Source: Candidatus Sumerlaeota bacterium (GTDB taxonomy: Bacteria; Sumerlaeota; Sumerlaeia; MWCT01; JAUWMI01). Taken from it: a stretch of 64,000 nucleotides of DNA. This document shows, one piece after another, positions 72 through 45,687 of this stretch. A program made the translations under genes and the position numbers. Below the pieces are notes generated by a model. It was not told the origin of the DNA. It saw nothing but the letters and a program-made list of their open reading frames with translations, and did not search any database. The first letter of the stretch is position 1; every line of letters starts with the position of its first letter. The stretch lies in the NCBI GenBank assembly GCA_030613245.1, contig JAUWMI010000008.1, positions 27,831 to 91,830 on the forward strand, given 5' to 3'.

Positions 72-2156
72 TCAGTTCAGGTATCGCCAAAAGACTACCC
101 GTGTCGGCTGTTCATCCGTTGCCAGAATGGCCTTCAGCGCTATAGGATTGGCATTATCCGTAAGCAGACCCTTGGGAGGGGTACTTTTGGAGATGACTGA
201 ACATGATCGCGATTTCACTGTGATGAGTTTTGCCAGATTGATAAAGCTTGCAATTCGTTTGTTCTCGCCCTTGTCGGGCCAGAGGACGTTATTGTATAGC
301 AGGTCGCTGATGTTATTAAAGAAGCTTGGATGAGATGACGTTGATCGCTCAGCCTTAGCCGCTAATGTGCCCTCACGATAACGCATGATGCGTTCTGCGT
401 CTCGCTGGTCAATCCCGGGAAGCGCTTGAAGAACTTCCACTGGTGCGGTATTAATATTTACCTTGCCAAGTACTGGTGGCTTTTTCAGCCTCGGAGAAAT
501 GGACGAAACATTCCGTCTGTGTGTTTCATCGCGTTTTGCCTCAAGTGAGGGCGACTGGCCTGTAAAATTAATCAGAGTAAATAGGTCAATGATTCGGCAG
601 TCCAGCTCCGCATCTGTGCTATTTGAAATCATCGGATATACCCAGCACGTCCCTTGGTGTCCCCCTGCTGGTGCCCACCCGGAAGAGACATACATGACTT
701 CTGCAGGCGACGTGAACGCATGATCTTGCCATTCCTTGGCGAACCTTGTCTCATCCAGATTCTGCGGCGAATAATTTGCATTAAGTGCAAAAGGCATGCA
801 GGATAGTCTTTGCCAGAATCGAACGCGTGGATCATTGCGCTGCAAACTAATATTCGCTCCCCCAAAGACCCCTCCTAGATAATAGAAATAGTCAATTAAA
901 TCGCCTTGCGCATCGTGCAGATATATCGTGCCGCTGGCATTGGGAATGTTCAGTGCCGGCTGTTCAATGATACGTTTCGTTGTACCATTCGGCACTAAGC
1001 CAAAAATGTCGTAAAACGATCCATAGTTTACCATTTGGTCTTCCGGGGTTGGGTCATTCTCCTCATTATAATCATCCGTAACAATAACGAACCCTCTTGG
1101 TGCAATGTTCCCATTGAGATATGCAATAGATCCACCACAATTTAGCTGCCATCCCTCTATGCTGATGGGATGCGAGTACGGATTATACAGCTCAACGTAC
1201 TGCCCATCATCTCCGTCTTCCTCTAGCGTCGGCGAGTCTGGAAAAACCTCGTTGATAGAGGGAGTCTGCTCAATGCCGATTATAGGATGATTAGGATTGC
1301 TTCCTGGGTAGAGCGTAGGAACAGTATCGGGGTCTCGGAAGTCAACGATGTTTGCGGCAAATTGCTTGAGCAGGTCATCGTTTTTGCGTGGGAATCGAGC
1401 GCGAAGGGTAGAATAAATTTCCGATGGAATTGCATGGTTCATGCTACACTTACGCACAAGCTCGGAGCCGTTAAAGTAAGTCTCTTCCGATGCCGAGAAT
1501 ATGGTAAGGCACGGCTCCAGAGCAGCATAGATTTCCGGGGTGAAATTGGGCAGAAGCAGGAGCTCCTCCAAATTGTAAAATGGCTTGTCGTCTCCGTAAG
1601 GAGGGAGGCGCGGATCACCGACGTATTCATCCGGGATATCGGATTTCCCGGGCCTTCCGTCGGCCCCGAGGCGATGGCGAACAATTTCACGTGCCAGCGT
1701 TGAGGCAAGTCCCGAACGGAGGTCATTTTTGTGTAATAGTGATACAAACAGTGCTTCCAGTATCTGCTCATTTGCCGTATTTACGTTAATCTTTGCCGAT
1801 TCGTCAAAGATGTATATTTCTGATAGCGAGCTCTGAAATAGCTGCTTATGCTGCTCAGCAGGCCGAGCCAATTCGCCCGCCTGGGAGTACAAGAACCCGT
1901 TAGGGTGGGCCCATTCCTGTATCAGACTTGTATACTTGACCTCCTGGTTGAAGAGAGCTGCGGCGCGAGCGACACCGGTTGCCGCGCCCATGCGCGACTG
2001 AATGCCTTCAGAGAAATTGCTAGCCGCTATGATCTCCAGCCGTGAGGTGAACGACAGAGTGGTCGCAATGAGCACCAGAAGCGAGAGAATTGCAATCACG
2101 ATGATAAACGTTGACCCTCGATTTGGTCGTCCTCTATATAAGCAATGGTTCATCAT
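72..2156 (-). CDS. GspK/PilX-like minor pseudopilin carrying an inserted lamin-tail (LTD) domain
   Basis: 694-aa ORF. N-terminal NRG|STFIIVIAILSLLVLIATTL pilin-like hydrophobic segment without Glu5, as in GspK. Two helix-hairpin-helix-like motifs (INVNTANEQILEAL; VNINTAPVEVLQALPGIDQRDAERI) typical of GspK. Central DGDDGQYVELYNPYSHPISIEGWQL matches the LTD consensus. Last gene of an H-I-J-K series; ATGA 4-nt overlap with the upstream gene. Confidence 0.7.
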   Translation of the reverse strand: MMNHCLYRGRPNRGSTFIIVIAILSLLVLIATTLSFTSRLEIIAASNFSEGIQSRMGAATGVARAAALFNQEVKYTSLIQEWAHPNGFLYSQAGELARPAEQHKQLFQSSLSEIYIFDESAKINVNTANEQILEALFVSLLHKNDLRSGLASTLAREIVRHRLGADGRPGKSDIPDEYVGDPRLPPYGDDKPFYNLEELLLLPNFTPEIYAALEPCLTIFSASEETYFNGSELVRKCSMNHAIPSEIYSTLRARFPRKNDDLLKQFAANIVDFRDPDTVPTLYPGSNPNHPIIGIEQTPSINEVFPDSPTLEEDGDDGQYVELYNPYSHPISIEGWQLNCGGSIAYLNGNIAPRGFVIVTDDYNEENDPTPEDQMVNYGSFYDIFGLVPNGTTKRIIEQPALNIPNASGTIYLHDAQGDLIDYFYYLGGVFGGANISLQRNDPRVRFWQRLSCMPFALNANYSPQNLDETRFAKEWQDHAFTSPAEVMYVSSGWAPAGGHQGTCWVYPMISNSTDAELDCRIIDLFTLINFTGQSPSLEAKRDETHRRNVSSISPRLKKPPVLGKVNINTAPVEVLQALPGIDQRDAERIMRYREGTLAAKAERSTSSHPSFFNNISDLLYNNVLWPDKGENKRIASFINLAKLITVKSRSCSVISKSTPPKGLLTDNANPIALKAILATDEQPTRVVFWRYLN

Positions 2157-3085
2157 AGGTTCAACAAATGGGTCTGATAGCGCTGGTCTTTTAGCACCTG
2201 CTCAATGTTGACAACCGTCTGAAGCGTAATGGTCTGTACCGGATTGCCCGGTTTATACTGTTCGATCGGCTTCGGATCCGCATAAACCGACACTGCCAGA
2301 AAAACCGCAATAGGCAGCTCGATGCCAGGTTGCACGAAACGTGGCGCATCGAATGAGTTCCAGGTTGTGGTCCAATCTGGCGGAATGCGGTTCGGATCCC
2401 AATAGAGTAAATAGAGCGACATCACATTGAAGGCGAGGGGTGCTACCTCTACTGTCCTATTTGGGGATGATGGGTTGTGAACAATACGGCGTAAAAGGAC
2501 ATGCTGTTCGCCTTCAAATGTTCCGACCTCGAATGTAATCAGATCGTCACGCCTAAGGGGATTATTCGGATCAGGGAAAATCCGAAACGTCAGCCGATCA
2601 AGGTCGAATTTGCAGTCCTCGTCAACGTGACTATCTCCCAGGTCAGGAGTATTAACAAAGAATTGCCGCTCAAAGAGGCCGCCTACCACAGCATGGCGAT
2701 CATCACGTGTTGGATTCCAGTCTGGGCCAGTATAATCATCATCACGTCCGTTGAAGAGCTCTTCGTCAATCACTCCATCTCCGTCATCATCAAGCCCGTT
2801 GCCATAGGCCAAAATATAATCTTCACCCACGAAGTGCTGCAACGGCTGGCGTGGATCAATGCGGGCCGCCTTGATGTCAATAGCCATCATTTCCAGTGCC
2901 GCGCGGGCATTGTTGACAGCCTCCAATTTCGTCTCTGCAAGATTAGTAGCCCGCAAAATCTGAATAAACGCCGCTACCACGCCACCCATAAACGCCATCG
3001 CGACTGCCACAGCAACCAGGAGCTCCAGCAAGGTCATCCCTCTGGTTCTGGGATACTTTTGAGCCATGTGCACATTGCTTCTCAT
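2153..3085 (-). CDS. GspJ/PilW-like minor pseudopilin
   Basis: Class III prepilin signal KYPRTRG|MTLLELLVAVAVAMAF. The ORF track extends to 3232, but that would give a >50-aa leader. ATG at 3083-3085 (MRSNVHMAQ...) or 3065-3067 (MAQKYPRTRG) is more plausible. 4-nt overlap with the downstream gspK-like gene. Confidence 0.6.
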   Translation of the reverse strand: MRSNVHMAQKYPRTRGMTLLELLVAVAVAMAFMGGVVAAFIQILRATNLAETKLEAVNNARAALEMMAIDIKAARIDPRQPLQHFVGEDYILAYGNGLDDDGDGVIDEELFNGRDDDYTGPDWNPTRDDRHAVVGGLFERQFFVNTPDLGDSHVDEDCKFDLDRLTFRIFPDPNNPLRRDDLITFEVGTFEGEQHVLLRRIVHNPSSPNRTVEVAPLAFNVMSLYLLYWDPNRIPPDWTTTWNSFDAPRFVQPGIELPIAVFLAVSVYADPKPIEQYKPGNPVQTITLQTVVNIEQVLKDQRYQTHLLNL

Positions 3086-3231
3086 AGGCTGCAGGTTGTC
3101 TGTTTTTCGGGGCGTCGCCTTGCCCGTTAGATTATTTATGCCTAAAACATCAGGCCGAAAGCTACCATTGGATTTAAATTGCTGATTACTTTTACACAGT
3201 AACCGACAAACGGACAAATAGTAGTTCTGCA

Positions 3232-3687
3232 TTATTCATCAAAGCGCAGTTCATAAATGATATTCTGGCTGCTTTTAAAGCTTCTATGGTACCGAATGAT
3301 AATTCGTGCAACGCCGACGTCGTCCCGAGGGTCGCCAGGATCGTCCTCTGTATCAATCAACGACACGCCGCAGAATGAATAGGCCAGATGAGGGCTTTGT
3401 GGAAATTGAATGGGCTCGGTTGGTGTGCGTAGAATACGCAGCTGTTGAATGAAATTATGGCGTGGAGAATTATCACGCCGAATTTCCTCTGCTTTCTGGT
3501 GTGCTAACAGGGCAGCTTCCGACAATACCGCCGCATCATTATTGGCTTTCAGACTCAGAGGGAAGAAGTTGACGATGGCAATAATTCCCGCCAGCAGGAT
3601 AGCAAGGCTGACCAGCACTTCGAGGAGAGAGTATGCGCGCTGGATGGCCCGTCGGGGACTTCGACGCATTATCAAGCCCCCCTTCAT
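3232..3687 (-). CDS. GspI-like minor pseudopilin
   Basis: 151 aa. N-terminal RRAIQRA|YSLLEVLVSLAILLAGI prepilin-like motif with Glu5. Size and position (between H-like and J-like) fit GspI. Note Ala rather than Gly at position -1. Confidence 0.6.
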   Translation of the reverse strand: MKGGLIMRRSPRRAIQRAYSLLEVLVSLAILLAGIIAIVNFFPLSLKANNDAAVLSEAALLAHQKAEEIRRDNSPRHNFIQQLRILRTPTEPIQFPQSPHLAYSFCGVSLIDTEDDPGDPRDDVGVARIIIRYHRSFKSSQNIIYELRFDE

Positions 3688-4211
3688 CTACGGGCATCCG
3701 GATAGATACGAGATTTGGCTGTTGAGGAGTAGAGCCTTATGGTGTAGTAATTCTCCCCAACTGCAGTATCTTCGCTTTCGCGGATGAGATGCACTGTTGC
3801 GTAGTCCGAGGTTCCATTGGGACGAAACAGAATGTGCACAACCCCCGAAGTCTCGGTTTTTGAATTCACCGTGACATCGGTAATTCTGACAAAATCAGTT
3901 AACAGCTTAGGTGTGGTGATTTTTGGCTCGCTAATGTTAAAGAGGTAGTTAACCTTGTCAATCCAGATGCGTCGATTGGTGATATCAATTGTCGCCTGAA
4001 AGTAACCATTCTGCTCAATTGCCTTATTGCGAGCAGTAGAAAACAAAGTGTTTATCTCTCGTGCGGAGCTCTTCAGACGAAGGCTTTTGCGATAGGTACC
4101 GTATGACAGGATGGCAAGGGTGGAGAAGATGGAAAGAATAATAAGAACAACTAAAAGCTCAAGCAGGCTATACCCCTGCTGCTTTTTTGTAGGCAATCGT
4201 CGCACCCGCAC
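3684..4211 (-). CDS. GspH/FimU-like minor pseudopilin
   Basis: 175 aa. KKQQG|YSLLELLVVLIILSIF prepilin motif. 4-nt overlap with the downstream gspI-like gene. Confidence 0.65.
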   Translation of the reverse strand: MRVRRLPTKKQQGYSLLELLVVLIILSIFSTLAILSYGTYRKSLRLKSSAREINTLFSTARNKAIEQNGYFQATIDITNRRIWIDKVNYLFNISEPKITTPKLLTDFVRITDVTVNSKTETSGVVHILFRPNGTSDYATVHLIRESEDTAVGENYYTIRLYSSTAKSRIYPDARR

Positions 4212-4388: not shown

Positions 4389-5624
4389 TTAGTCTCGACC
4401 CAGGATCTTCGGGATCGTAAACAGCGGGAGATAAAGCGCAACCACGATCACGCCGACAATTCCGCCAAGGCATACGATCATCAGCGGCTCAAGGATTGAG
4501 GTAAGGCCATTTATCGTATCATCAACTTCCCTCTCGTATGCCTCTGCAACCTTCGTGAGCATTTGGTCTATCGCACCGGTTTCTTCCCCAACAGCTACCA
4601 TATGGACAACCAGGGGAGGGAAGACTTTGCTATCGCGCAATGGCTCATGAATACTTTCGCCATCCTTCACGCTTGTGTAGACCTTCTCCATAGCCCGCGC
4701 AATGACCTCGTTTCCTGACGTATCGCGCACGATGTCAAGCGCCTGCAAGATAGGCACACCAGCCGTGATAAGCGTTGACAGAGTACCGGCAAAGCGGGTG
4801 ATTGCAATCTTGCGCAGCAGATCCCCGAACACCGGAAAGCGCAGCTTCATCCTGTCAAGCGCGTATTTGCCATTACGGTTTGCATTGATCTTCTTGTATA
4901 TGAAGACTATCGCAACAATGCCAAGGACCACAAGCCATGTCTTATGGACCAGGACATTGCTGGCATCCATCAGGAATTGCGTGAGTGCAGGTAGCTCCGC
5001 ACCCAGCTGGGCAAAGATATCTTCAAACTTTGGAATGATCGTGATCAAGATAAAGGCCACGATACACCCAGCCAAAACCATGACCGTTACAGGATACATC
5101 ATGGCCGAGCGGACCTTGCCGATAAGGGCCTGGCGTTTCTCTAGAAACTCGGCCACCTTGTTCAGGACTGCTTCCAGCACGCCGCCGATCTCACCGGCTC
5201 TCACCATGTTTACGTAGAGATTGTCAAATACTTTGGGGTGCTTCGCCAGCGCATCAGAGAGCGACGCGCCTGCTTCGATATCCTTTGCAATCTGGCCGAT
5301 CTTCTCTTTAAAGACAACGGATTCTACCTGTTCCTGGAGAATGTAGAGACTCCGCAGAATCGGCAACCCCGCGTCAATCAGTGTCGCTAGCTGCCGGGTA
5401 AATGTCATGACATGTTTTGTTTTGATGCGGTGAGCAATATTACGAATAAGGGGAAGCGAAAACAGGTCAATCTCACTGGCCTTCTTCCTATGAGGAACAA
5501 CCTTCAGAGGGTAGTACCCCATTCCGCGAAGTTTTTCGATAATGACGTCTTCGTTGCTGGCGTCAATTACGCCGCGGACTTGCTTGCCCCCCTTATCTAG
5601 GGCTTCATAAAAATATTCTGACAT
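4389..5624 (-). CDS. GspF/PilC-family inner-membrane platform protein
   Basis: 411 aa. Two T2SSF repeats (FTRQLATLIDAGLPILRSL ... FAGTLSTLITAGVPILQAL). Three predicted TM segments. Adjacent to the ATPase gene. Confidence 0.85.
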   Translation of the reverse strand: MSEYFYEALDKGGKQVRGVIDASNEDVIIEKLRGMGYYPLKVVPHRKKASEIDLFSLPLIRNIAHRIKTKHVMTFTRQLATLIDAGLPILRSLYILQEQVESVVFKEKIGQIAKDIEAGASLSDALAKHPKVFDNLYVNMVRAGEIGGVLEAVLNKVAEFLEKRQALIGKVRSAMMYPVTVMVLAGCIVAFILITIIPKFEDIFAQLGAELPALTQFLMDASNVLVHKTWLVVLGIVAIVFIYKKINANRNGKYALDRMKLRFPVFGDLLRKIAITRFAGTLSTLITAGVPILQALDIVRDTSGNEVIARAMEKVYTSVKDGESIHEPLRDSKVFPPLVVHMVAVGEETGAIDQMLTKVAEAYEREVDDTINGLTSILEPLMIVCLGGIVGVIVVALYLPLFTIPKILGRD

Positions 5625-5629
5625 GACCC

Positions 5630-7603
5630 TTACTCCTTCGAAGACCTCGGCGATTTTTGTCCGTCACCGATCTGGTGGGGGCTCGTAGCAGCCTCGTTGT
5701 CCCAGGGTTGCTTTGCAACTGGTTGAGATGGCGCGGGTACTTCTGCCTTGGGCGCTTCTGCGACCTTTTTACCAGACCGCGCCTCTCGGTCGCTCTTTAC
5801 CTTTTTGATGGTTTCTTGAATAATCTGTTCCATTTCCTGCGAGATCTGCTCCTTGGTCTCCCTAGGTGTTTGACGTGCAACTTCCTCGAAAGTTGTCGCC
5901 CCCAGGCAGATTTTCAACCACCCGTCGTTGCGCATCGTTTCCATGCCTTGGTGGACCGCCATCGCATGTATCTGGTCAGTGGTGGCTCTTTGCAGCACCA
6001 GTTCCCGAATCTCTTCGGTCATGATGAGTAGCTCAAAAATCCCCAGCCGGCCCTTATAGCCAGTATATGAGCACTCGTCACACCCATTTCCTTTGTAGAA
6101 CGTAATATCATGGACATCCTTGGATGTAGCGCCGAAGTCTTCAAGCTCTTCGGGCGTCGGTGTATAGGGACGCCTGCAGTTCTGGCAAAGCGTGCGAATA
6201 AGGCGCTGGCCCACAACCGCCTCAAGAGTTGAGGTGATAAGAAATGGCTCAACCCCCATGTCAATAAGCCGGGTGATTGTGGCTGCTCCGCTGTTGGTGT
6301 GCAGTGTACTAAAGACAAGGTGGCCGGTCAGAGAGGCCTGAATGGAGATCTGGGCGGTTTCCAGGTCACGCACTTCACCCACAAGAATGATATCAGGGTC
6401 CTGCCGCACGATATGGCGGAGGCAAATTGCGAAGTTCAATCCAACTTTAGGGTTAATGTTTACCTGGATGATGCCGGGCACTTCGTACTCCACTGGATCC
6501 TCTGTGGTGATGATTTTGCAGCTTGGATCGTTAATTTCGTTAATTGCAGCATAGAGGGTTGTTGTCTTTCCACAGCCCGTGGGACCGGTTACCAGAACTA
6601 TTCCGTTAGGCTTGCGAATCAGTTTCATGAATTTATCCAGTGTCTCTTTTGTCATCCCAAGCTGGGCAATCCCCAACATCATCATTGATTTATCCAATAT
6701 ACGGAACACGATGCTCTCGCCATGGACGGTAGGAATGCTCGAGACACGAAGGTCAATTTCCCGTTCAGAGACGGTCAGACGAATCCGGCCGTCTTGTGGC
6801 ATCCGAGTTTCCGCGATATTCATGTTCGCTAAGACCTTGAGGCGGGAACAGAGACCGAGCTGAAGTGATTTGGGGGGCGATGGAATCTCACGCAGGACTC
6901 CGTCTACCCGGTAGCGAATGCGCAGGATACCCCCGAACGGCTCTACATGAAGGTCGCTAGCACGATCCTTAATCGCCTGGAGTAGAATGAGGTTTACCAG
7001 TCGAATCACCGGTGGCTCATGCGCGATGCGCTCCAAATCACTCAAATCCATTTCGTCAACATCCCGGATCAGCAGCGCTTCTTCGTCTTCCTTATCAAAC
7101 TCCTCAACCATTTTTTCGATGGTTTCATCCCCAATTCCGTAATACCGTTCTACGTATTCCATAATATCATCTTCGCCAGCGACAACAGGCGAAACGTTCT
7201 TATCCAATAAAAGTCTAAGGTCATCAACAATTGTGATATTCAAAGGGTCTGAGATAGCCACGACGATGGTGCCGTCGGGCTCTTCCCTCAGGGGAAAGAC
7301 TTTGTAAGTGCGAGCAATCTCGGCCGGAATGTATTTTAAGATTTTCAAATCCTCAACGGGATACTCGGAAAGGTCAACGTACGGGAGTCCGGCCTGTTCT
7401 GATAGCATTTGCAACATGTCGGTCTTGGCCACGAATTCTGGCCCTGCTTTTTCAGAGGCAAGTCTTGAACCAGCCTCGCCTTTCTCCAAAACACTGCGCC
7501 CAACCGTCTGTTCATGCTTGGCGGCTTCCCCTTTTATGAGTTCTTCCATTTCCTTACGATAGCTTTTAAACCGGCTGTCAGGATTGCTATTAGCCATGAT
7601 CAC
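5630..7603 (-). CDS. GspE-like type II secretion / type IV pilus assembly ATPase with C-terminal low-complexity tail
   Basis: 657 aa. GspE_N-like N-domain. Walker A GPTGCGKTTT. Asp box and His box. Tetracysteine CQNCRRPY...CDEC. About 80-aa K/E/P/A-rich C-terminal tail after the zinc module. Confidence 0.85.
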   Translation of the reverse strand: MIMANSNPDSRFKSYRKEMEELIKGEAAKHEQTVGRSVLEKGEAGSRLASEKAGPEFVAKTDMLQMLSEQAGLPYVDLSEYPVEDLKILKYIPAEIARTYKVFPLREEPDGTIVVAISDPLNITIVDDLRLLLDKNVSPVVAGEDDIMEYVERYYGIGDETIEKMVEEFDKEDEEALLIRDVDEMDLSDLERIAHEPPVIRLVNLILLQAIKDRASDLHVEPFGGILRIRYRVDGVLREIPSPPKSLQLGLCSRLKVLANMNIAETRMPQDGRIRLTVSEREIDLRVSSIPTVHGESIVFRILDKSMMMLGIAQLGMTKETLDKFMKLIRKPNGIVLVTGPTGCGKTTTLYAAINEINDPSCKIITTEDPVEYEVPGIIQVNINPKVGLNFAICLRHIVRQDPDIILVGEVRDLETAQISIQASLTGHLVFSTLHTNSGAATITRLIDMGVEPFLITSTLEAVVGQRLIRTLCQNCRRPYTPTPEELEDFGATSKDVHDITFYKGNGCDECSYTGYKGRLGIFELLIMTEEIRELVLQRATTDQIHAMAVHQGMETMRNDGWLKICLGATTFEEVARQTPRETKEQISQEMEQIIQETIKKVKSDREARSGKKVAEAPKAEVPAPSQPVAKQPWDNEAATSPHQIGDGQKSPRSSKE

Positions 7604-7655: not shown

Positions 7656-8741
7656 TTATGTCGTGACTGCCTCTTGGCGTGCGCCCATGAGTTTGACGCG
7701 CATTTCATCGGGATAATGGGCACGCTCGAGGACTAGCTCGCCCGTGATGTGCCCTTGGCGATAGAGGTTGAGCAAGTAGTCATCGAGCGTAATCATACCG
7801 AGTTTTGCCCCGGTTTGAATAGTAGATACGATGCGGTTCGTCTTGCGTTCCCGGATCAGGTTAGCCACCGCAGGAGTATTGTGCATGATTTCGAATGCCG
7901 CAATTCTACCTTTTCCAGAGGCCCGGGGGAGCAGCGTCTGAGAAATCACGGTTTTCAGGGCCACCGAGAGGATAGAACGAATCTGTTCCTGTTGGTTTAC
8001 AGGAAACGCGTCAATAATGCGGTCCACGGTTTGAGCAGCACCAATAGTATGCAGTGTCGCGAAGACCAGGTGGCCGGTCTCGGCTGCCACAAGCGCGGCT
8101 TCCATTGTTTCCAGGTCGCGCATCTCGCCCACGAGGATCACGTCCGGATCCATTCGCAGAGAACCCCGGAGAGCATATGCAAATGAGGGGGTGTCAATGT
8201 GCAATTCCCGATGTGTAACAATTGCCTTCTTATGGAGATGATAGTATTCAATCGGGTCTTCGACGCTGATGATGTGCACGTAGCGCTCGGCGTTAATGTG
8301 GTCAATCATTGTGGCCAGGGTAGTGGTTTTCCCACTCCCTGTTGGGCCAGTAACCAGCACCATTCCACGGTGAGAATGGAGAATCTCAACGATCGAGTCT
8401 TTGGGCAGTCCGAGTTCTTCCCAGGTGAGGATGCGCGACGGAATCAGCCGCATACTAATCCCGATATTGCCGCGGCTCCGGAACACAGCGCAGCGAAACC
8501 GCGCCAGGTCACTATAAGCATAAGCAAAGTCGGCACTCCCGTGTTCTTGCAACATTTGCTGGTAGCGCGGCGGTGTGATTTCCTTCATAAGGCGCTCGGT
8601 GTCTTCAGGCGTAAGGGTATCGGGATCAATGACATCCAGTATCCCGTGGAGTCGCATGACAGCGGCCTTGGCGACGTGCAGGTGAAGGTCTGAAGCATCG
8701 CGCTCCACGATAATCTTGAGCATCTGATTCATTTCAAGCAT
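7656..8741 (-). CDS. pilT: PilT-family twitching-motility (retraction) ATPase
   Basis: 361 aa. N-terminal ASDLHL motif. Walker A GPTGSGKTTT. Length and lack of a zinc module typical of PilT/PilU. Confidence 0.8.
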   Translation of the reverse strand: MLEMNQMLKIIVERDASDLHLHVAKAAVMRLHGILDVIDPDTLTPEDTERLMKEITPPRYQQMLQEHGSADFAYAYSDLARFRCAVFRSRGNIGISMRLIPSRILTWEELGLPKDSIVEILHSHRGMVLVTGPTGSGKTTTLATMIDHINAERYVHIISVEDPIEYYHLHKKAIVTHRELHIDTPSFAYALRGSLRMDPDVILVGEMRDLETMEAALVAAETGHLVFATLHTIGAAQTVDRIIDAFPVNQQEQIRSILSVALKTVISQTLLPRASGKGRIAAFEIMHNTPAVANLIRERKTNRIVSTIQTGAKLGMITLDDYLLNLYRQGHITGELVLERAHYPDEMRVKLMGARQEAVTT

Positions 8742-8816: not shown

Positions 8817-10655
8817 CTACTCGATATCAGATTGCGTAATACGTAGGACTTCAGGAATCGTTGTAATCCCCAGGAGCACCTTCTGCCAGCCGTCCATCCG
8901 GAGAGTTTGCATTCCTTTGCCAACCGCGTAGGCCTTTATTTTTGTGGCAGACTCTGCCCGAATAACCATTTGCCGGGTTGCCGAATCCATAATGAATATT
9001 TCATGGATCGCAGTTCGGCCGCGGTAGCCGGTTCCGTTGCAGCGGTCGCAGCCACTGCCTTGAAAGAACTCGCGATCGCGATATTTCTCAGGATTATAGC
9101 CTATCTCTAGGATCTCTTCTGGGTGTGGGGTGTACGGCTTTTTGCAATGAGTACAAGTACGACGTATGAGGCGTTGGGCAATTACGGCCTGGATGCTAGA
9201 GGCTACCAGGAATGGCTTTATCCCCATATCCATGAGGCGGATCGTTGCACTCGCCGCATCATTCGTATGCAACGTGCTAAAGACCAGGTGGCCAGTCAAC
9301 GCTGCCCGGATGCCAATCTCAGCGGTTTCCAGGTCACGAATTTCGCCCACAAGGATAACGTCCGGCGATTGCCGCAGCATGCTGCGAAGCCCTTTGGTAA
9401 AGTCCAGCCCAATATCCTCGTTCACCTGCATCTGGTTGATGCCTTCAATCTGATACTCGACCGGATTCTCAATGGTTATGATTTTCGTCTCTGGATTGTT
9501 GATTGTACTCAGGGCCGAATACAGCGTAGTGGTTTTGCCGCTTCCAGTTGGACCAGTCATCAAAATAATACCGTTTGGCGTCTTGATCAACTCGCGAAAG
9601 ATCTTAATGTTATCCGGGAGAAACCCGACGTCCTCAAGGCCCATAATAACGGTGGTTTGATCCAAGATACGCATGACAATACTCTCACCATAGATCGCCG
9701 GGAGCGATGAGACACGCAGGTCTAACTTCTTATCCGGCATATTGAGCTTGATCCGGCCGTCTTGTGGGACACGCTTCTCCGCCAGATCGAGCCCGGCGAG
9801 CACCTTCAAGCGCGAGATAATGGCATTCTGCCAGCGCTTCGGAGGGGACGGAACTTCGTGTAGCATGCCGTCAACCCGGAACCGGATCACCACGCCATGG
9901 CGGGCAGGCTCAACGTGAATGTCACTGGCCCGGTCGTGCACCGCCTGCTTAAAAATCAAATCTACGAATTTAACCACTGGCGGCTGCTCAGCTTCCGAGA
10001 CATTCAGGTCAACCTCTTCATAGTCCTTATAGGGGCTCATCTCCTGATCAGCCTGATCGGTAAAACCTTCGTATAGCTCCGCCACCTCGTTGCCTTCATA
10101 GTAGCGCTTAATAGCCTTCTGGATATCTTCGTCTGACGCCACAACTCCGATGACCTTTTTGCCAAGAATCTTCTCCAGATCGTCCGTAGTCTGGATATTC
10201 AGAGGATCTGACAGAGCTACATGAATAGACTCATCGTCATAGCGAACGGGGAAAACCTGGTATTTCTGGGCGGTTTTTGAGTCAATCTGTTGTACTAGCT
10301 CCGGCGTAACCCGTAAATCCTGGAAGGAGATTTTCTCCATGCCCATCTCTTGCGCCAAGGCATCAAGAATATCAGATTCCCGGACAAGCCCCTGGGAGAT
10401 TAGACTTCGCTTCAAGCTCTGTGCACTCTCATCGCTATTGCGCACGACGTCGCTGATCATTTCTTCATTGATAAGACCTGCCTCTTCAAGAATAAGCCCT
10501 AGGGTGGGAGTGCTACTCTTGTACTTCTTGGCGAGTGTCCGCTTGTCGAAGAATGCTTTCTCTTCCTCGGTCGGTTTGCGAACCGGCTTCTTTGCTCTTT
10601 CCCGCTCGCCAATTTTAGGATTATCTTTTCTATCTGTTCCGGCCATGTCGCTCAC
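8817..10655 (-). CDS. pilB: PilB-like type IV pilus assembly ATPase with N-terminal MshEN-like domain
   Basis: 612 aa. Walker A GPTGSGKTTT. CTHCKKPY...CDRCNGTGY zinc module. N-terminus contains two 24-residue motifs (TLGLILEEAGLINEEMISDVVRNS; SLKRSLISQGLVRESDILDALAQE) separated by 5 residues, resembling the c-di-GMP-binding MshEN tandem motif. Confidence 0.85.
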   Translation of the reverse strand: MSDMAGTDRKDNPKIGERERAKKPVRKPTEEEKAFFDKRTLAKKYKSSTPTLGLILEEAGLINEEMISDVVRNSDESAQSLKRSLISQGLVRESDILDALAQEMGMEKISFQDLRVTPELVQQIDSKTAQKYQVFPVRYDDESIHVALSDPLNIQTTDDLEKILGKKVIGVVASDEDIQKAIKRYYEGNEVAELYEGFTDQADQEMSPYKDYEEVDLNVSEAEQPPVVKFVDLIFKQAVHDRASDIHVEPARHGVVIRFRVDGMLHEVPSPPKRWQNAIISRLKVLAGLDLAEKRVPQDGRIKLNMPDKKLDLRVSSLPAIYGESIVMRILDQTTVIMGLEDVGFLPDNIKIFRELIKTPNGIILMTGPTGSGKTTTLYSALSTINNPETKIITIENPVEYQIEGINQMQVNEDIGLDFTKGLRSMLRQSPDVILVGEIRDLETAEIGIRAALTGHLVFSTLHTNDAASATIRLMDMGIKPFLVASSIQAVIAQRLIRRTCTHCKKPYTPHPEEILEIGYNPEKYRDREFFQGSGCDRCNGTGYRGRTAIHEIFIMDSATRQMVIRAESATKIKAYAVGKGMQTLRMDGWQKVLLGITTIPEVLRITQSDIE

Positions 10656-17884: not shown

Positions 17885-20800
17885 TCAGGGTACGTTGAGA
17901 GATTCGACAGCGACGGAATTGAGCATCAACGCGCCGTTTGAAGCATCCGCGGGGTCAAAGTTCAAGATGTCAAATGCCGCGAGAATGCTGTCTGCTTCTG
18001 TGCCGACCAGCGATTGTGGAGGATAGAAATAGAGGTCGTAGGTACGCCCCGAAGGGATCGGGCTCATCTCCGCGCTGGTAACAGAACTAACGACCTTCAC
18101 TATGCTTGACTGAAAATCTTCACTTGATGTGCGTAACCGAAGCTGTGGCACCTGTTCCTGAACCGTAACGTCCGTGCTCACGGTAAATCGCAGCCGATAG
18201 AGTTTGCCTGCCTCTGCCTGCACCAATTCCGAAGGCCCACTCCAGAAGCCAAAGGTGTTCGTATTGTTCTGCGCTGTGAGCCAAAGAGCGCCACTGGCAA
18301 TAGTGCTCGTGGGCGGAGTGAAAAAGATCGGCGCAGAGCCAAATTGCCAGCTCTCAGAATCCGTGTCGAAGATCCACGTCTTTAGCAAAGTCGGCGTGTC
18401 CAACGTTTCCAGAGGAATCGCATCCACAACCACTCTATCCAGCATCACTGAGCCATACGCAGCATCTGAAGGGTCAAAATTCAGAATATCAAATGACAGG
18501 ATCAAATCATCTTGATCCTCTGGCTTTCCCAACGCGCTCTCTGGCGGGATAAAATACATCTCGTACGTCCGTCCATCCGGAGTCGGCGAATATGAACCAT
18601 CCCCCGTACTACTCACCACCAAAATATCCGCCTGTTGAAGATTCTGGCTATTCACGCGCAGCTGCATATGTGGCACCGCAAGAAGATCCGTAACGTCTGT
18701 TACAACTGTCCAGCTCGCCCGATACAAGCAATCCGCTATCACCGGCACAGCATCCAGCTCGCTCGTCCAGAAGCCATACGTATTGGTATTATCCTGCGCA
18801 GTGAGTATAATGTGCCCTGGCAGATAATAACATTCTGGTGGTGTGAAGTACCTGGAAAGTGTAACCGAAGTCCATCCCTCCTCAGTCAGCTCAAAATCAT
18901 AATCCTGCACTGAGAACGGACCGAGAAATTCATCTGCACCAATGTCAAAGTCCGAGCCATCGCCACGCGGTTCACTGGTGCCATCCATAAGTCGCGGATC
19001 GCCTTCAAAGTCCTCAGTCAAGCCATCAATATAGCCCCCCGCATCTATACAGGGCGAGCTAGGCAACAAATGAAAATCGCCATTCAGTGGGTCAACGAAT
19101 TGTGGATCAGAGGAGATATTACCTTCGCCGCCCCCCGCCAAATCCTGAATGCAAGAATAAGAAGGTTTGACGCAATGGTAAAGTTGCGCTCCTGAAGGGG
19201 CAATATTTTGCCAGATAATACAGTTTCTTATGGCACGGCTGCAGAATTCAAGCCCGCCGCCATAATCACTGGCCAAGTTGCCGTGAATAGTATTATTCTG
19301 GATACTAGCGTAGCACCCATAAAGCCCACCCCCTGTTCGAGCTGAATTGGCCAAGATTAAGTTGTTCTGGATGGTACCGTCGCACTCATGGAGCCCACCG
19401 CCACGATAACCACAGGAGTTGCGAGAGATCACATTATATTGAATGATGCCGTCACAGTCCGTAAGCCCGCCGCCATAGTCCTGGGCTGAATTGTCCGAGA
19501 TTATATTATTCTGAATCGTGCCGTCACAACCGTAAAGCCCACCGGCACGATTATGAGCCGAATTGCCGTAGATAGTATTGTTCTGTATGGTTCCGCTGCA
19601 ATAGTAGAGTCCGCCGCCACTCCAGGAAGCCGAATTGCCCGAGATAACATTATTCTCAATCGTGCCATTGCAATTATAGAGCCCGCCGCCTTGAAGAGCC
19701 GTGTTGTTCAAAATTTTGTTATTCTCGATGCTAGTAAGCGCTCCATTGCCACATATTCCTCCACCAAGGTATCCTGAGCCATTGCGAATGGTGAACCCTT
19801 TAATCACGCTTGTCTTATTTTCCGTCCCGTGCAATAGGATAACCGTAAACACTGCACCCCCTTCAATTATAGTATTACTAACAACGCCATCATCGGAGGG
19901 ATTAGTACTTTGCAGAATTAGATTCTTTCCAAGAAAATTGAGGTTCTCATGATAGGTCCCAGGTGACACAGTTGCTACTTCTGAGGGGAAAGCCAGGAAT
20001 ATACCCTGTTGAATGGATGCATATTCAGCACCTACGGATATTCCTGAAGGTGTATTGTAGAGAGCGGGGTCAGTTCCGCGAAGTATTTCTACACCATCTT
20101 TTAGACCGTCCCGATCGCTGTCTGAATTGCTAGGATCGCTATTGTAAACAGCTTCTTCGATATCCGCCAATAGGTCGCCATCAAAATCCAGGGAGCTACC
20201 ATACTCATCACTTCCAATATCAACTGAGTTTCCTGCTAATCGGCATCCCCCATCTATATCTGCAATATACTCACCGAAGAAGTAATACGTATTCCCGGCA
20301 TCAATACAGGGAGAACCGGACTGAAGATGATAATCTCCATTCCACGGGTCAACAAATTTGGGGTCATCTGATATGTTGCCCCTGCCCCCCTGGGTCCAAT
20401 CTTGAATGCATGAATAAAAAGGGGTGCTTGAGTCATAGACCTGACTGCCATCAGGAGCAGAGTTTCCCCAGATGATGCAGTTAATGATAAATCCCTTGCA
20501 ACGATCCAGGCCTCCGCCTCCATCCCCAGCGGAGTTTTCTATAATGGTATTGTTTTGAATGGTGTCATTGCAGTCATAGAGGCCGCCACCATGATTTCTG
20601 GCCCAATTCCCAGAAATGGTATTATTCCGGATAGTGCCACCGCACTTAGCGAGTCCGCCACCTGCACTGAATTCTTGCCCAATAGCCGAGTTGCCCGAGA
20701 TGACATTGTTCTGTATAGTCCCATCGCAATAGGAGAGTCCACCACCATAACCATTATAGCGCCCGCCGTCTGCAATATTGCGCGAGATAATATTGTTCTG

Positions 20801-33276: not shown

Positions 33277-34491
33277 TTACCGGATCACTTTTACCAGGTT
33301 AAAATAGGGGAGCATTATCGCCATCGCAACAAAGGCTACTACAAAGCCCATTAGGATGATTAACATAGGCTCGAGAATAGAAGTAAGTCCCTTCAGACTT
33401 ACGTCCACATCATTATCATACGTATCAGCGATCTTGATCAGCATGGTGTCCAAAGCCCCTGCTTCGTCACCAATCGAAACCATGTCGACAACAATCGGGG
33501 GAAAGACACCGCCTGTACGCATGGGCTCTTCCATTTTGCCGCCATGCTCGACGTTCATATAAACTTTTGTCAAATTACTTGCTACCAGAACGTTTTCCGA
33601 GGTCTTTGCCGTGACGGAGAGTCCCTCAAGCAGTGGAATTCCAGCAGTCACCAAGTTCCCCAGGGTTCGGCTAAAGCGGGCCACGTTAATCTTTGTGTTG
33701 ATAGGGCCGACAATTGGAAGCCGAATCTTTAGCCAATCTAGCAAGTAACGACCTGAGCTTGTTCGGGCGAATCCGATAAGCAGAAAAATGGCGATGACAA
33801 TAACTGGAACATAAATCAAGGTATAGTGGCGTATGATGTGTGATACAAACAGGATGACTTTCGTCGGACCAGGTAATTCAGCCTCGTGACTGGCGTATAC
33901 GGCTTCGAACGTCGGAATGGCAACGGTCAGAATCACCACAATCACTGCCAGACAAGTCAGAAGGGATACTACCGGGTAGAGCAACGCCGAGCGCACCTTT
34001 TTCTTAATTTCCGCCTTCTTCTCCAAAATATCGGCAAGGCGCTTCATAGAGCTCTCCAGAATGCCTCCGACCTCGCCTACCCTGGCCACGCTGACGAACA
34101 GGTGCGAGAAGATACGCGGATGCTCAGCCAGAGCGCTTGACAATGTCTGGCCTTCCTCGACCCGTTGGGCAACCTGCTTTACCACGGCCTTCAGGCGCGG
34201 ATGCTGAGTCCGCTTGCTTAGTATCTTCAGGCTTCGGAGCAGCGGAATCCCCACGTCAAGCAACGTGGCAAGCTGGCGGCAGAAGGTCGCCATGTCGGTG
34301 ATATTTGGAGGGAAAATGCGGAGCGGCTGTTGGAAGCGGCCTGTACCTTCTCCCACAGGCTCACCAGCTCTGGGCTGGCGCGTCCTCGATACAGCTTCAG
34401 CCTCTACCGCATGGGTTTTGATTTTGCTTTCCAGTGCATCTTTTACAGAATCTGCCTCCGGTTTTTTCTTTTCGAACTTTTTGGACGCCAT
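33277..34491 (-). CDS. GspF/PilC-family platform protein (second copy)
   Basis: 404 aa. Two T2SSF repeats (FCRQLATLLDVGIPLLRSL; FSRTLGNLVTAGIPLLEGL). 3 TM segments. Confidence 0.85.
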   Translation of the reverse strand: MASKKFEKKKPEADSVKDALESKIKTHAVEAEAVSRTRQPRAGEPVGEGTGRFQQPLRIFPPNITDMATFCRQLATLLDVGIPLLRSLKILSKRTQHPRLKAVVKQVAQRVEEGQTLSSALAEHPRIFSHLFVSVARVGEVGGILESSMKRLADILEKKAEIKKKVRSALLYPVVSLLTCLAVIVVILTVAIPTFEAVYASHEAELPGPTKVILFVSHIIRHYTLIYVPVIVIAIFLLIGFARTSSGRYLLDWLKIRLPIVGPINTKINVARFSRTLGNLVTAGIPLLEGLSVTAKTSENVLVASNLTKVYMNVEHGGKMEEPMRTGGVFPPIVVDMVSIGDEAGALDTMLIKIADTYDNDVDVSLKGLTSILEPMLIILMGFVVAFVAMAIMLPYFNLVKVIR

Positions 34492-34603
34492 GCTTTAGAT
34501 CCTCCTTTGTGGGCCCTGTCTCCGGCACGGAGTCTCTTCCTTGGCGGGCATCAAAATTCGCAAGACCAGAAGTGTAGCTCTGGCGCCGTAGCCCGACTAT
34601 GCC

Positions 34604-36763: not shown

Positions 36764-37275
36764 TTCTCTTCTTGCTGCTCCTCAATGATGGAGTATCTAG
36801 TTTCTTTCAGCACGATTGCCACTTTGCGGTTACCGCCACGATTTGCCAGCACGTGGCGCTCTTTGGCCAGGTGCTCTCCCAGGTACGGAACTTCGGCATG
36901 CAGCCTCAGCACAATATCGCCTTCCGCAAAATTGAGCGCCCCTTGGCGGTAGAGCTCTGCATCGGTATGCAGCGGTTCGATGACACCTGTACCTGTTCCG
37001 TATGGAAAGGTAATAGAAAATTGGGTTAGCACGCCTGTAGATTCTCCGGTCGAGTTGCGGAGCATTTGACTTTGAAGGGAATTCAATAAAGTGTCCAGCC
37101 GCGCTTCGGCTTCCTGAAGCGCCACAGCGCTGATTCCTGTGTTTGCGAGCGTGGCAACTCCTACCACCATTATGAAGAGCGTTGCCAGCACGCCCAGCGC
37201 AGCAACCAGGGCGAACCCGTGTTTCTTCAAAGTAAACGTAGCACCGATTTTGATTTTAGTTGCTCGGATTTGCAT
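36760..37275 (-). CDS. PilX/GspK-like pseudopilin-type protein (no Glu5)
   Basis: 171 aa. KKHG|FALVAALGVLATLFIMVV class-III-signal-like N-terminus lacking Glu5. Sits between the pilW-like and ATPase genes. Confidence 0.45.
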   Translation of the reverse strand: MQIRATKIKIGATFTLKKHGFALVAALGVLATLFIMVVGVATLANTGISAVALQEAEARLDTLLNSLQSQMLRNSTGESTGVLTQFSITFPYGTGTGVIEPLHTDAELYRQGALNFAEGDIVLRLHAEVPYLGEHLAKERHVLANRGGNRKVAIVLKETRYSIIEEQQEEK

Positions 37276-37284
37276 TGTCTTGTT

Positions 37285-37950: not shown

Positions 37951-37983
37951 CCGCTTGGTTCCGCTTGTAGCGCTCTCTATTTG

Positions 37984-38104
37984 TCTGGTAGCACAAGCAT
38001 CCTTTTATCTGGTAGCACAGGCATCCTTGCCTGTGCATAGCTGTAACAGGCTGGAAGCCTGTTCTACCATTAGCTGTAACAAGCAAGAAGCCTGTTCTAC
38101 CATT
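37984..38104. repeat. Intergenic tandem repeats (2 x 24 bp, 2 x 33 bp) with two perfect 8-bp-stem hairpins between pilV-like and pilW-like genes
   Basis: Seen directly. 37984-38007 and 38008-38031 (tctggtagcacaRgcatcctt..). 38039-38071 and 38072-38104 (agctgtaacaRgcWRgaagcctgttctaccatt). Hairpins CACAGGCA-tcct-TGCCTGTG (38016-38035) and AACAGGCT-gga-AGCCTGTT (38045-38063). The last repeat unit abuts the pilV-like stop codon. The motif CCAGATAA from the pilV 3' end recurs in the repeats. Confidence 0.85.
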
Positions 38105-38596: not shown

Positions 38597-38797
38597 CAGG
38601 ATTCCAGGAGGTATTTAGATTATGAGTAGAAATACATTGGCTCGATCAGCCGTGTCAATACTTTATTTTTTCAATTTCCCGCTGAATTTACTCTGGATCG
38701 ATAGGGATGATCAGTGAAGTACAAAGTGGCACGGGCATCTTGCCCGTGAGAAATCGGAAAAGAACCACCTGGCCTGCATGTTGGCAGACAGGCCAGT

Positions 38798-42907: not shown

Positions 42908-43248
42908 TCTCAGACATCCTTAAGGCTTTATGGTTTATGTTTAAGCGACTTGAGGTTAGCATTGCAATTGATTTCTTGCCAGGTCCAACAAACGATTAGT
43001 AGAGCCGATGTCATGTTTTTCGCAGTGGTGCCAATCGAGAGTAGGGGCAGTTCGTGAACTGCCCTTAATTATTGACATTTCGTCAGAGCCATTGCTCAAG
43101 CCACGCTTTTTCAGGCCTTTATCCGCCACTGGCGGATTTATGCGTCCGTCTGGGCGGGCAAGCCTTAGGCGCGTTAATAGGCCGAGAAACTGGACAGGTA
43201 GCAGGGCCAAAAAAATCACTTTTGGGCAAAAAAAATACTTGACAGGCC

Positions 43249-43277
43249 ACGGCCCCTCAGGTAAATTCCAATTTCGA
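43249..43277 (+). promoter_or_regulatory. Sigma70-type promoter for the LTD secreted-protein gene (TTGACA-N17-TAAATT)
   Basis: Seen directly: TTGACAggccacggcccctcaggTAAATT at 43249-43277. A TATACT lies shortly downstream. Followed by an about 115-nt leader with two GGAGG motifs. Confidence 0.5.
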
Positions 43278-43401: not shown

Positions 43402-45621
43402 ATGAGGCGAATAACGCTTATTGTGTTGGCGTTGATGGTTTGCTCAATTGCCTCGGCAGTTCCCATCAATCCCACGGTAGACTGGTATACGTCATACACT
43501 CCCTACCGTCACTACAACACGGCGTACAATCCAGCCACCGGCCACCTCATCACGAATAACAGATATTACAGCGCTTCCGAACAGGCATTAGGCTACGTCC
43601 CGGAACTCAGTATTTGGGATTCCACTGACGGCTCGTACATCAAAGGCCTTGCCTTTGCTGAAGGTAGCAGCCCATTCAGCCTCACATGCACGACTGACGG
43701 TGTAATCATGGGGGCCGATCTGAGCCTTGGTGAGGTTGTTTCGTGGTGGGCTGATGAGAACACCAGTCCGGGTGTGCTTAAGCCTGCTCCAGACCTTGAT
43801 TTCAGCCGTGGTTGTAATGTGCGTGGCACCAGCAGCAGTCCTACACTGTACATGGCTTGTGGTAGCAGTGACCTTGACAAGGCCCAGGTACTGCAGCTAG
43901 ACGCCACATTGACCACCTGGAGCGTGGTGAGTGTGATTCCCGCACCTTTCTGCAAGTCGGCGGTCGCTGTTAAAGATCAGAACACAGTCTTCGGCGGCGG
44001 GCCGTGGATGGAAGACGGCGACGCCAGTCCGACTCTGGGATTCCCGGATGTCCGTAGGAATATGAATCCTGGTAGCTGGGCGTACGCGAACTGGGTGCGT
44101 GATGACACGTTCAACCCGGAAGATGCTACAACAGGTGGATGGTCTTACACTCTATCTGCTGACTATGCTGACGGACTCTACTGGGCTCTCTTGTACTGGG
44201 ATGCACGAATTGTCGCCTACGAGGCAGTGCATGGTACGATCCTAGCCAGCATGCCCGTTGATACATGGGGGTACCTGTCATGGGGTAAGCCCGCAATTCT
44301 CTATTACGGCGGTCTTATTACCGAGGAAGGCGGAGCACCCAACAACACCGTTTTCTGGGGTTCCCGGCTGTATAATGCTGGCTATAATGGCGCGCTGGGC
44401 AAGATGACCTACACTGCGCCCCTGCCGGTGATCAACGAGGTCGACTACGACAATGCCGGCACGGACCTCACAGAATTCGTCGAGCTCTGGGGCGTGCCTG
44501 GCACCGACATTTCAGGCTACCAGCTGATAGGCCACACTGCTTCTAGTGGAGACGAATATGCCACTTACACGGTCCCTGCGAGCACGGTGATTCCTGCTGA
44601 CGGGTTCTACGTGATGGGTGCTGCCACTGTGGCTAATGTTGACCAGGTGATCGGCGTCACGAATCTCATTCAGAATGGTACGCCGGATGCCCTCGTGCTG
44701 AGGAACGCAGGTGGTACGATCATTGATGCGCTCGGCTACGAGATGGAGAATACTCCTGGCGCGTTGCCTTCATTCTCGTATGAAGGCACTGGTATGCGTG
44801 GTGGTGCCAACTTCGGTGCGCAGGTCTCTGTTGGAAGAAAGGCTGATGGCCGTGACTCCGATGATAACCAGGCAGACTTCGACATCATGAAGCCGTCACC
44901 TGGCGCAAAGAACCGGGGTTCGCTCTGGTCTGATGACATGCCGTACGTAGATCGCTTCCCGGGTGCGGGTCCTGAGCTGGCATGGTATGGCACCTTCGTT
45001 ACTCCAACCACGCTGGATCCAGCATCAGTTGGTGCACCTGATTCGCCTGAGGCTGCTATTACTGGCCTGATTCCGACTGCATCACCTGATTCAGTTGGTC
45101 GGGTAGACGATCCGTCTGGTGGTGGCAACGCGGTCATTCTCGGTGATCACAGCGTTGGCAGTGCTAACATCAACATCCAGGGCTGGGCCTATATCGGTGT
45201 TGATGGCGAGTCGATTGCCTTGTTCGTCCGTGGTCTTGGCGATGCCGCATGGCAGAGCAGCAGTTCAGACTATGAGAATTGCTATGCCATTCAGTACTTC
45301 GATGATGAAACCACAAATGTTGTGCAGGCGATTAAGCTGCAGGCTGGGACCAAGACTGTCTTTGCACAGTCAGACTACGTTGGCTCGCCGGCATGGCATC
45401 ATCTGCGCATCTGGGCCAACGGCTCGACCGTGGCGACGTATCTAGACAGTGCCAAGTTGTCTGAGGACACTGATAGCGACATCGCTAGCGGGCCTGTCGG
45501 TTTTGGCTACAGAGAGGTACACACTGGAGCTCCTATTAACGGCATGATAGTAGACAGCGTTATCATTGATAAGAACTTCGGTGATGCTGTGACCACTGTC
45601 GCAGATTGGAACCTCTTCTGA
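43402..45621 (+). CDS. Secreted protein with lamin-tail (LTD) domain and C-terminal LamG/concanavalin-like region
   Basis: Signal peptide MRRITLIVLALMVCSIASA. Strong RBS AAAGGAGGtatttaaATG. LTD motif INEVDYDNAGTDLTEFVELWGVPGTDISGYQL. 739 aa. Confidence 0.75.
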   Translation: MRRITLIVLALMVCSIASAVPINPTVDWYTSYTPYRHYNTAYNPATGHLITNNRYYSASEQALGYVPELSIWDSTDGSYIKGLAFAEGSSPFSLTCTTDGVIMGADLSLGEVVSWWADENTSPGVLKPAPDLDFSRGCNVRGTSSSPTLYMACGSSDLDKAQVLQLDATLTTWSVVSVIPAPFCKSAVAVKDQNTVFGGGPWMEDGDASPTLGFPDVRRNMNPGSWAYANWVRDDTFNPEDATTGGWSYTLSADYADGLYWALLYWDARIVAYEAVHGTILASMPVDTWGYLSWGKPAILYYGGLITEEGGAPNNTVFWGSRLYNAGYNGALGKMTYTAPLPVINEVDYDNAGTDLTEFVELWGVPGTDISGYQLIGHTASSGDEYATYTVPASTVIPADGFYVMGAATVANVDQVIGVTNLIQNGTPDALVLRNAGGTIIDALGYEMENTPGALPSFSYEGTGMRGGANFGAQVSVGRKADGRDSDDNQADFDIMKPSPGAKNRGSLWSDDMPYVDRFPGAGPELAWYGTFVTPTTLDPASVGAPDSPEAAITGLIPTASPDSVGRVDDPSGGGNAVILGDHSVGSANINIQGWAYIGVDGESIALFVRGLGDAAWQSSSSDYENCYAIQYFDDETTNVVQAIKLQAGTKTVFAQSDYVGSPAWHHLRIWANGSTVATYLDSAKLSEDTDSDIASGPVGFGYREVHTGAPINGMIVDSVIIDKNFGDAVTTVADWNLF

Positions 45622-45649
45622 CGCTCACTGCCTAGCAGAGTGATTCTGA

Positions 45650-45687
45650 GGGGTAAATAAGGTAACCTTATTTACCCCTTTTTTTTT
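45650..45687 (+). terminator. Rho-independent terminator (13-bp perfect stem, 3-nt loop, T9)
   Basis: GGGGTAAATAAGG-taa-CCTTATTTACCCC followed by TTTTTTTTT, 29 nt after the LTD gene stop. Confidence 0.8.

Follow-up and report, generated by a model that had tools for sequence, protein, structure and literature searches.

A GspK-type minor pilin with a lamin-tail domain inserted in its α-domain

The 64,000-nucleotide stretch of DNA analysed here (the window; Candidatus Sumerlaeota bacterium, GenBank assembly GCA_030613245.1, contig JAUWMI010000008.1) carries close to its first end an open reading frame (72..2156, minus strand) encoding a 694-residue GspK-like minor pilin with a nested lamin-tail domain (LTD), which we call K-LTD. 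Public assemblies contain an identical gene product, which belongs to a large family, ruling out a gene-call artefact. With the Pfam gathering scores as cut-offs, K-LTD gives the following matches.

Residues 123-220: T2SSK_1st (PF21687), 30.1 bits, cut-off 26.2
Residues 300-426: LTD (PF00932), 36.4 bits (E 7e-9), cut-off 34.3, a small margin
Residues 565-595: HHH_3, 51.4 bits, cut-off 27
Residues 566-596: T2SSK (PF03934), 36.9 bits, cut-off 24.2

The N-terminus reads RG/STFII, the slash following the Gly at -1. In our family alignment A1 (44 sequences, the source of the N-terminal counts and of the sub-profiles used below, and the basis of the AlphaFold2 model), 38 of 39 aligned relatives retain this Gly, and at +5 nearly all members have I or L and none has Glu; the Pfam scan gives no N_methyl match for K-LTD at E<=1. 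Judged from sequence, Gly-1 without Glu5 is the hallmark of GspK. An assignment to the Verru_Chthon cassette protein A family (TIGR02600) was rejected, as the match covers just 14 residues at 17.5 bits.

The AlphaFold2 model (mean predicted local distance difference test score, pLDDT, 81.8; predicted template modelling score, pTM, 0.80) predicts the pilin fold with inserted two-lobed α-domain that defines GspK, together with an Ig-like β-sandwich superposable on the lamin tail. Foldseek searches with this model retrieve the lamin A/C and B1 Ig folds (E 2-4e-4) and, independently of these, XcpX/GspK. At sequence level, phmmer of K-LTD against the PDB gives only marginal ComEA matches, and the family profile matches both ComEA and XcpX for lobe 2. 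Lobes 1 and 2 are the two SAM/HhH (helix-hairpin-helix) halves of the GspK α-domain, SAM1 and SAM2. The protein is divided as follows, all on the minus strand.

Residues 1-71 (1944..2156): short leader, Gly-1 and hydrophobic α1 helix without Glu5 (model helix 13-71; Gly-1 and I/L at +5 in the family)
Residues 112-222 (1491..1823): lobe 1, the first SAM/HhH half (T2SSK_1st; PF21687 at 123-220, XcpX alignment)
Residues 223-296 (1269..1490): an extra, third HhH-type hairpin, which opens the insertion (hhalign)
Residues 297-455 (792..1268): the LTD, an acidic Ig-like β-sandwich (net charge -15, pI 4.06)
Residues 456-562 (471..791): linker closing the insertion, poorly conserved (low identity) and partly disordered (pLDDT <50 at 536-556)
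Residues 563-645 (222..470): lobe 2, the second SAM/HhH half (T2SSK/ComEA-like HHH_3; Pfam, and PDB profile matches to ComEA and XcpX)
Residues 646-694 (75..221): C-terminal β-strands completing the pilin fold

In XcpX the two SAM/HhH lobes are contiguous, and when aligned to the K-LTD family profile they fall at 112-180 and 647-680, about 355 profile positions apart. The insertion of about 345 residues, comprising the extra HhH hairpin, the LTD and the linker, thus lies exactly at the junction of the two α-domain lobes. The extra hairpin is homologous to both lobes, matching the start of lobe 1 with an hhalign probability of 90% (E 1.5e-6) and lobe 2 with one of 85%. HhH motifs are generic to every GspK α-domain.

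Sequence, predicted fold and gene order all identify the 694-residue protein as a GspK-type minor pilin, and its LTD is real and is part of an insertion in the GspK α-domain. This agrees with much of a preliminary description of the window, which had proposed a pilin-like N-terminus without Glu5 and an LTD in mid-protein: both are borne out, the LTD model detects a domain in K-LTD and in a second, separately encoded protein (36.4 and 36.9 bits), T2SSK passes its cut-off in K-LTD, and similarity to GspK extends to the predicted fold, in which the LTD would form part of the α-domain insertion. Its count of two HhH-like motifs has to be revised to three HhH-type hairpins.

An operon with a retraction ATPase, conserved across uncultured phyla

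K-LTD is the eighth gene of an operon running in the order PilB-PilT-PilB-PilC-H-I-J-K, followed by five GspG-like pilins. The genes preceding it, all on the minus strand, are listed here from the one adjoining K-LTD outwards.

2153..3232: GspJ-like prepilin, 359 residues (mature about 294), with DDDGDGVIDEE loops and a stop codon that overlaps the start of K-LTD
3232..3687: GspI/PilV-like prepilin, 151 residues (family match below cut-off)
3684..4211: GspH-like prepilin, 175 residues (family match below cut-off)
4389..5624: platform protein PilC/GspF (Pfam T2SSF; NCBIfam GspF 422 bits, cut-off 424, and PilC 424 bits)
5630..7603: extension ATPase PilB/GspE with MshEN domain, copy 2
7656..8741: PilT/PilU-family retraction ATPase (TIGR01420, 435.5 bits, cut-off 319.1)
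8817..10655: extension ATPase PilB/GspE with MshEN domain, copy 1

The ATG of K-LTD overlaps the stop codon of the GspJ-like gene, the start of which shares one base (3232) with the end of the 151-residue gene, and the latter overlaps the 175-residue gene by 4 nt. The 359-, 151- and 175-residue products have the prepilin N-termini G/YSLLE, A/YSLLE and G/MTLLE, respectively; all three match N_methyl, and the GspJ, GspI/PilV and GspH models match them below the family cut-offs. K-LTD is not, as had been supposed, the last gene of the series, since five GspG-like prepilin genes (286, 246, 230, 255 and 209 residues) follow it just past the window edge on the same contig of the public assembly. Two paralogous PilB/GspE ATPases thus flank PilT in one operon, an arrangement kept in UBP4-type loci (L038 and L042). 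The MshEN domain binds cyclic di-GMP.

A PilT/PilU-family ATPase within the cluster is the mark of a retractile type IVa pilus, and with PilT encoded inside a conserved operon, the most economical reading is a filament that retracts and grips; the K-LTD filament is probably retractile. About 74 kb of sequence (the window and 10 kb downstream) contains PilT and none of the components by which a type II secretion system (T2SS) would be recognised (GspC, GspD, GspL, GspM, a secretin), so the system is not classifiable as a T2SS; for K-LTD the better name is GspK-equivalent of a type IV filament that contains PilT. The gene cluster showed no PilY1 homologue.

The family is large. A word-indexed search with K-LTD returned 56 clusters (90% identity), almost all of them carrying precomputed LTD and HHH_3 matches and some already named 'GspK [Candidatus Sumerlaeota bacterium]' by NCBI, and the same search with the LTD segment alone returned zero matches. 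An exhaustive profile search of 1.84 billion representatives gave at least 375 K-LTD clusters (50% identity) at E<=1e-30, and in the best 150 of these the matches are mostly full-length. With each GTDB species represented by a single genome, a scan confirmed 118 relatives in the stretches that matched, and 80 loci were kept for comparison. These come from about 40 Sumerlaeota species and from Aerophobetes, Omnitrophota, Ratteibacteria, TA06, UBP4 and some metagenome-assembled genomes (MAGs) labelled Clostridia; the closest relative among them, 95% identical, is in MAG GCA_964454265.1. The gene order H-I-J-K-G1..G5 is kept across the Sumerlaeota species, with PilB-PilT-PilB-PilC upstream of H-I-J-K wherever the contig extends that far, and in the other phyla (Aerophobetes, Omnitrophota, Ratteibacteria, UBP4) two to seven prepilin genes precede K.

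The domain order is equally stable. Sub-profiles cut from A1 find the LTD in 190 of 190 family proteins, and lobe 1 precedes the LTD and the LTD precedes lobe 2 in all 173 proteins in which the three parts can be scored. Eight distant homologues keep the order T2SSK_1st, LTD, HHH_3/T2SSK, with the LTD often under the Pfam cut-off. Mean pairwise identity within Sumerlaeota-type sequences, our measure of regional conservation, is distributed as follows.

α1 helix: 52.2%
LTD: 48.8%
Lobe 2: 30.1%
C-terminal sheet: 26.4%
Linker: 23.7%

The LTD is therefore the best-conserved globular part of K-LTD, above GspK's own C-terminal parts (26-30%). This speaks against a diversifying adhesin and is compatible with a single invariant ligand as well as with a structural role. 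As read from these sequences, the GspK-LTD fusion is ancient, its LTD has never been lost and is more conserved than the GspK scaffold, and for these reasons K-LTD is likely to be central to the work of the filaments in poorly understood, mostly uncultured phyla.

Elsewhere in the window lie a second type IV filament locus, separate from the K-LTD operon (33277-38614), and two genes for proteins that are probably further secreted or surface proteins. All are on the minus strand.

33277-34491: GspF/PilC-like protein, second filament locus
34604-36763: 719-residue PilB/GspE-like ATPase, second filament locus
37288-38004 and 38108-38614: two prepilin genes, second filament locus
17885-22693: 1602-residue protein with right-handed β-helix, DUF5123 and bacterial TSP3 repeat matches
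57747-59063: 438-residue protein with a cohesin domain

The separate secreted LTD protein

The second LTD of the window belongs to a secreted protein of 739 residues, encoded with its putative signals on the plus strand.

43239..43267: promoter-like site TTGACA-17-TAAATT (pattern match only)
43402..45621: 739-residue secreted protein with signal peptide, six-bladed NHL-like β-propeller, LTD, disordered linker and ConA/LamG-like sandwich
45648..45680: intrinsic-terminator-like hairpin (15-bp stem and T run) after the gene

The gene is preceded by the ribosome-binding site AAAGGAGGT, and with its own promoter-like site and terminator it reads as monocistronic. The preliminary description had credited it with an LTD, a LamG-like region, a near-consensus promoter and a very strong ribosome-binding site. 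The LTD (residues 343-446, 36.9 bits, and present in 11 of 11 family members) and the ribosome-binding site are as described. The LamG-like region is not significant in the protein itself (E 0.61), although Laminin_G_3 matches 4 of 11 relatives (best E 2e-5), and the promoter-like site is indeed present, but the number of such matches around the gene is not above that in shuffled controls.

The same description took this protein for a possible ligand, cargo or partner of the LTD pilin. Its gene lies 41 kb from that of K-LTD and on the opposite strand, and the interval holds housekeeping genes, among them thiamine, GlnE and asd genes. BLASTP finds no similarity between the two proteins, and the K-type LTD profile misses the LTD of the 739-residue protein even at E<=10; it is this LTD, and not that of K-LTD, which most resembles the LTDs of ExeM/NucH-type nucleases. 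Full-length relatives of the 739-residue protein form about 11 clusters, confined to close relatives, against at least 375 for K-LTD, and none occurs within 10 kb of any of the 80 K-LTD loci. In the sister MAG GCA_964454265.1, where K-LTD is 95% identical, the syntenic 739-residue gene (L082 5128-7329) is only 51% identical, showing that the two genes are not co-evolving. Genes flanking the 739-residue locus are 91-97% identical in this MAG, and the next-but-one rotamase-like gene (46264-47982) is 76% identical. The 739-residue protein is accordingly a hypervariable secreted protein in its own right and not a conserved partner of K-LTD.

Downstream, a 124-residue open reading frame (45791-46165), a homologue of which matches PF05635 (23S rRNA intervening-sequence/Avd-like protein), is flanked by inverted arrays of 8-bp tandem repeats, with about 11 copies of CTGCTAAA upstream (45703-45790) and about 12 copies of TTTAGCAG downstream (46165-46262). 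Both arrays are longer in the sister MAG (L082 7404-7759 and 8146-8628). A mechanism of the diversity-generating retroelement type for the hypervariable gene was set aside, as there is no reverse transcriptase nearby and the divergence spans the whole protein.

The LTD as a candidate tip module and its relation to known systems

The LTD of K-LTD is strongly acidic (family median net charge -13), as are lobe 1 (net -8) and the extra HhH hairpin. Only in the Aerophobetes-type branch (A1 rows P0049-P0056), where the LTD region spans about 225 residues compared with 159, is this region net basic, in 6 of 7 sequences (+4 to +11; P0053 is -3), and the ligand may therefore differ between the Aerophobetes-type and Sumerlaeota-type branches. 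Most relatives carry one to four calcium-loop-like DGxDNDxDGxxDE repeats in lobe 1 (A1, around residues 165-195), which the K-LTD of the window lacks. Together with the acidic DDDGDGVIDEE and RDDD loops of the GspJ-like pilin (2153-3232), these repeats make cation-mediated contacts in this filament plausible on sequence grounds. Such an acidic LTD surface makes a polysaccharide or a cation-bridged ligand likelier than naked DNA.

We propose, in what we regard as an evenly balanced case, that K-LTD serves a type IV filament as its GspK-equivalent tip subunit and displays its LTD at the apex, where the domain binds an invariant extracellular ligand. By analogy with the T2SS and with type IVa pili (T4aP), K, I and J (and H) would prime the filament and stay at its distal end, where the GspK α-domain would form the cap and so show the nested LTD at the apex. 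The LTD would then most likely bind one invariant extracellular ligand, probably a polymer or surface component, and PilT-driven retraction would pull in the ligand, or the cell. K-LTD would in this way be a modular tip pilin, with the effector module nested inside GspK and not appended to a pilin. The tip placement of the LTD is something we infer from the known GspK-I-J tip complex. Korotkov and Hol are said to have placed the GspK α-domain at the pseudopilus tip in 2008. GspK is described elsewhere, too, as tip-located with its α-domain at the pseudopilus tip (PMC8179133). More tentatively, and with some doubt, several uncultured phyla (Sumerlaeota, Aerophobetes, Omnitrophota, Ratteibacteria, TA06 and UBP4) may have in common a single, ancient class of retractile type IV filament, in which the tip LTD would be dedicated to capturing one conserved ligand from the environment, for instance a polysaccharide, extracellular DNA bridged by cations or a host or prey surface component.

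Several points weigh against the proposal of a ligand-binding tip LTD. We know of no ligand for any bacterial LTD. The NCBIfam GspK equivalog model NF037980 scores 74.2 bits, under its cut-off of 130, and aligns only residues 13-224. The 74 kb yielded neither a secretin nor PilMNOPQ nor GspC/L/M, components that could lie elsewhere in the genome, so that exposure of the filament at the cell surface is putative. High conservation of the LTD would fit a purely structural role equally well. In ExeM, removal of the LTD lowers nuclease activity in vitro and not in vivo, and the role of the domain is left open (PMC6085458); we found no other experimental study of a bacterial LTD, and our literature searches gave no relevant paper linking LTDs with GspK, pili or type II secretion, or Sumerlaeota with type IV pili.

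This conservation is one argument for an alternative which we consider rather unlikely, namely that the LTD and its flanks enlarge and stiffen the GspK cap, as a plug, a piston head or a contact surface for an outer-membrane conduit or neighbouring minor pilins, and touch no external ligand. The LTD is as conserved as the assembly helix α1, it is absent from none of the 190 relatives, and the pTM for a multidomain chain of this length suggests rigid packing over a tethered module; the function of GspK's own α-domain is, moreover, still called unclear (PMC8179133). However, canonical GspK and XcpX work without such an insertion, PilT in the operon suggests pulling, which needs grip, and the Ig-like LTDs of other bacterial proteins are found alongside secreted hydrolases and domains that bind sugars, an association pointing to contact with a ligand (PMC6085458, citing Mans 2004).

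An improbable reading is that the tip subunit is a DNA receptor, capturing extracellular DNA for competence or nutrition through its ComEA-like HhH with the LTD as an auxiliary nucleic-acid-binding fold. The strong HHH_3 match and the retraction ATPase would suit it, but the HhH motifs, being generic to all GspK α-domains, are no sign of DNA binding and cannot rescue a reading that is weakened, for the protein of the window, by the net charge of -15 of the LTD, with lobe 1 and the hairpin acidic as well; this charge also weakens the nucleic-acid-binding LTD envisaged in the preliminary description. Nor does the conserved K-LTD neighbourhood contain a ComEC, DprA or nuclease gene. Although LTDs are common in ExeM/NucH-type extracellular nucleases and tip-located DNA-receptor pilins such as ComZ are known elsewhere (cited in PMC8179133), ExeM does not need its LTD to degrade extracellular DNA in vivo (PMC6085458). 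The pairing of K-LTD with the 739-residue protein as its secreted ligand, cargo or partner is close to refuted: both LTDs pass the Pfam threshold within one 64-kb window, and the 739-residue protein has a signal peptide, promoter-like site and strong ribosome-binding site, but the separation of the genes by unrelated ones, the terminator of the 739-residue gene, the mutual dissimilarity of the proteins, the narrow distribution of the one and its absence from the flanks of the other, and their discordant divergence in the same genome pair all stand against it.

How type IV filaments gain specific functions is an active question, currently answered by pilins onto which binding modules have been grafted. 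The novelty of K-LTD is limited in that databases already annotate such proteins as GspK with an LTD match, yet the case differs in its carrier (the GspK cap), in the position of the module (nested in the α-domain) and in the module itself (an LTD). If the LTD does act in capture at the tip, this would be a first defined cellular role for a bacterial LTD and a new way to arm a pilus tip. As a domain of about 160 residues, easily expressed, it offers a concrete object for ligand screening.

Among known systems K-LTD is close in plan to GspK/XcpX (PDB 3CI0 chain K and 5VTM chain X; PF21687 and PF03934), the tip minor pseudopilin of the T2SS, with which it shares the pilin helix with Gly-1 and without Glu5, the pilin β-sheet interrupted by a two-lobed SAM/HhH α-domain, and a gene position after gspH-I-J. 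It differs in having about twice the size, owing to the insertion between the α-domain lobes, and in an operon with PilT and five long GspG-like pilins but no GspC/D/L/M in the sequence examined. The four T4aP minor pilins FimU-PilV-PilW-PilX, which prime a PilT-retractable filament and place an adhesive module, the PilY1 adhesin, at its tip, offer a comparable arrangement by analogy, except that here the candidate adhesive module would be built into the K/PilX-equivalent and not carried by a separate PilY1 protein. With the LTD nucleases ExeM, NucH and Xds (PMC6085458) K-LTD shares a secreted or surface-exposed bacterial LTD, and indeed the K-LTD profile, in a local hidden Markov model search of the collected proteins, detects the LTDs of several nuclease-type proteins; however K-LTD has no nuclease or OB-fold domain, and its LTD is strongly acidic and sits in a filament subunit. 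Display of adhesive modules is an established principle in the modular type IV pilins (Raynaud et al. 2021, PMC8179133), exemplified by PilB-vWA and PilC-lectin of Streptococcus sanguinis and by ComZ of Thermus, and in these, as in K-LTD, a filament subunit carries a generic binding domain presumed to be exposed at the tip; the architecture IPR012902-IPR001322, pilin with LTD, is represented by 6 proteins in Dataset S1 of that study. The K carrier differs in lacking IPR012902/N_methyl and in having its module nested in the inserted α-domain instead of at the C-terminus. By its sequence K-LTD therefore fits the concept of a modular pilin and not the operational definition, as the LTD is present and N_methyl is absent.

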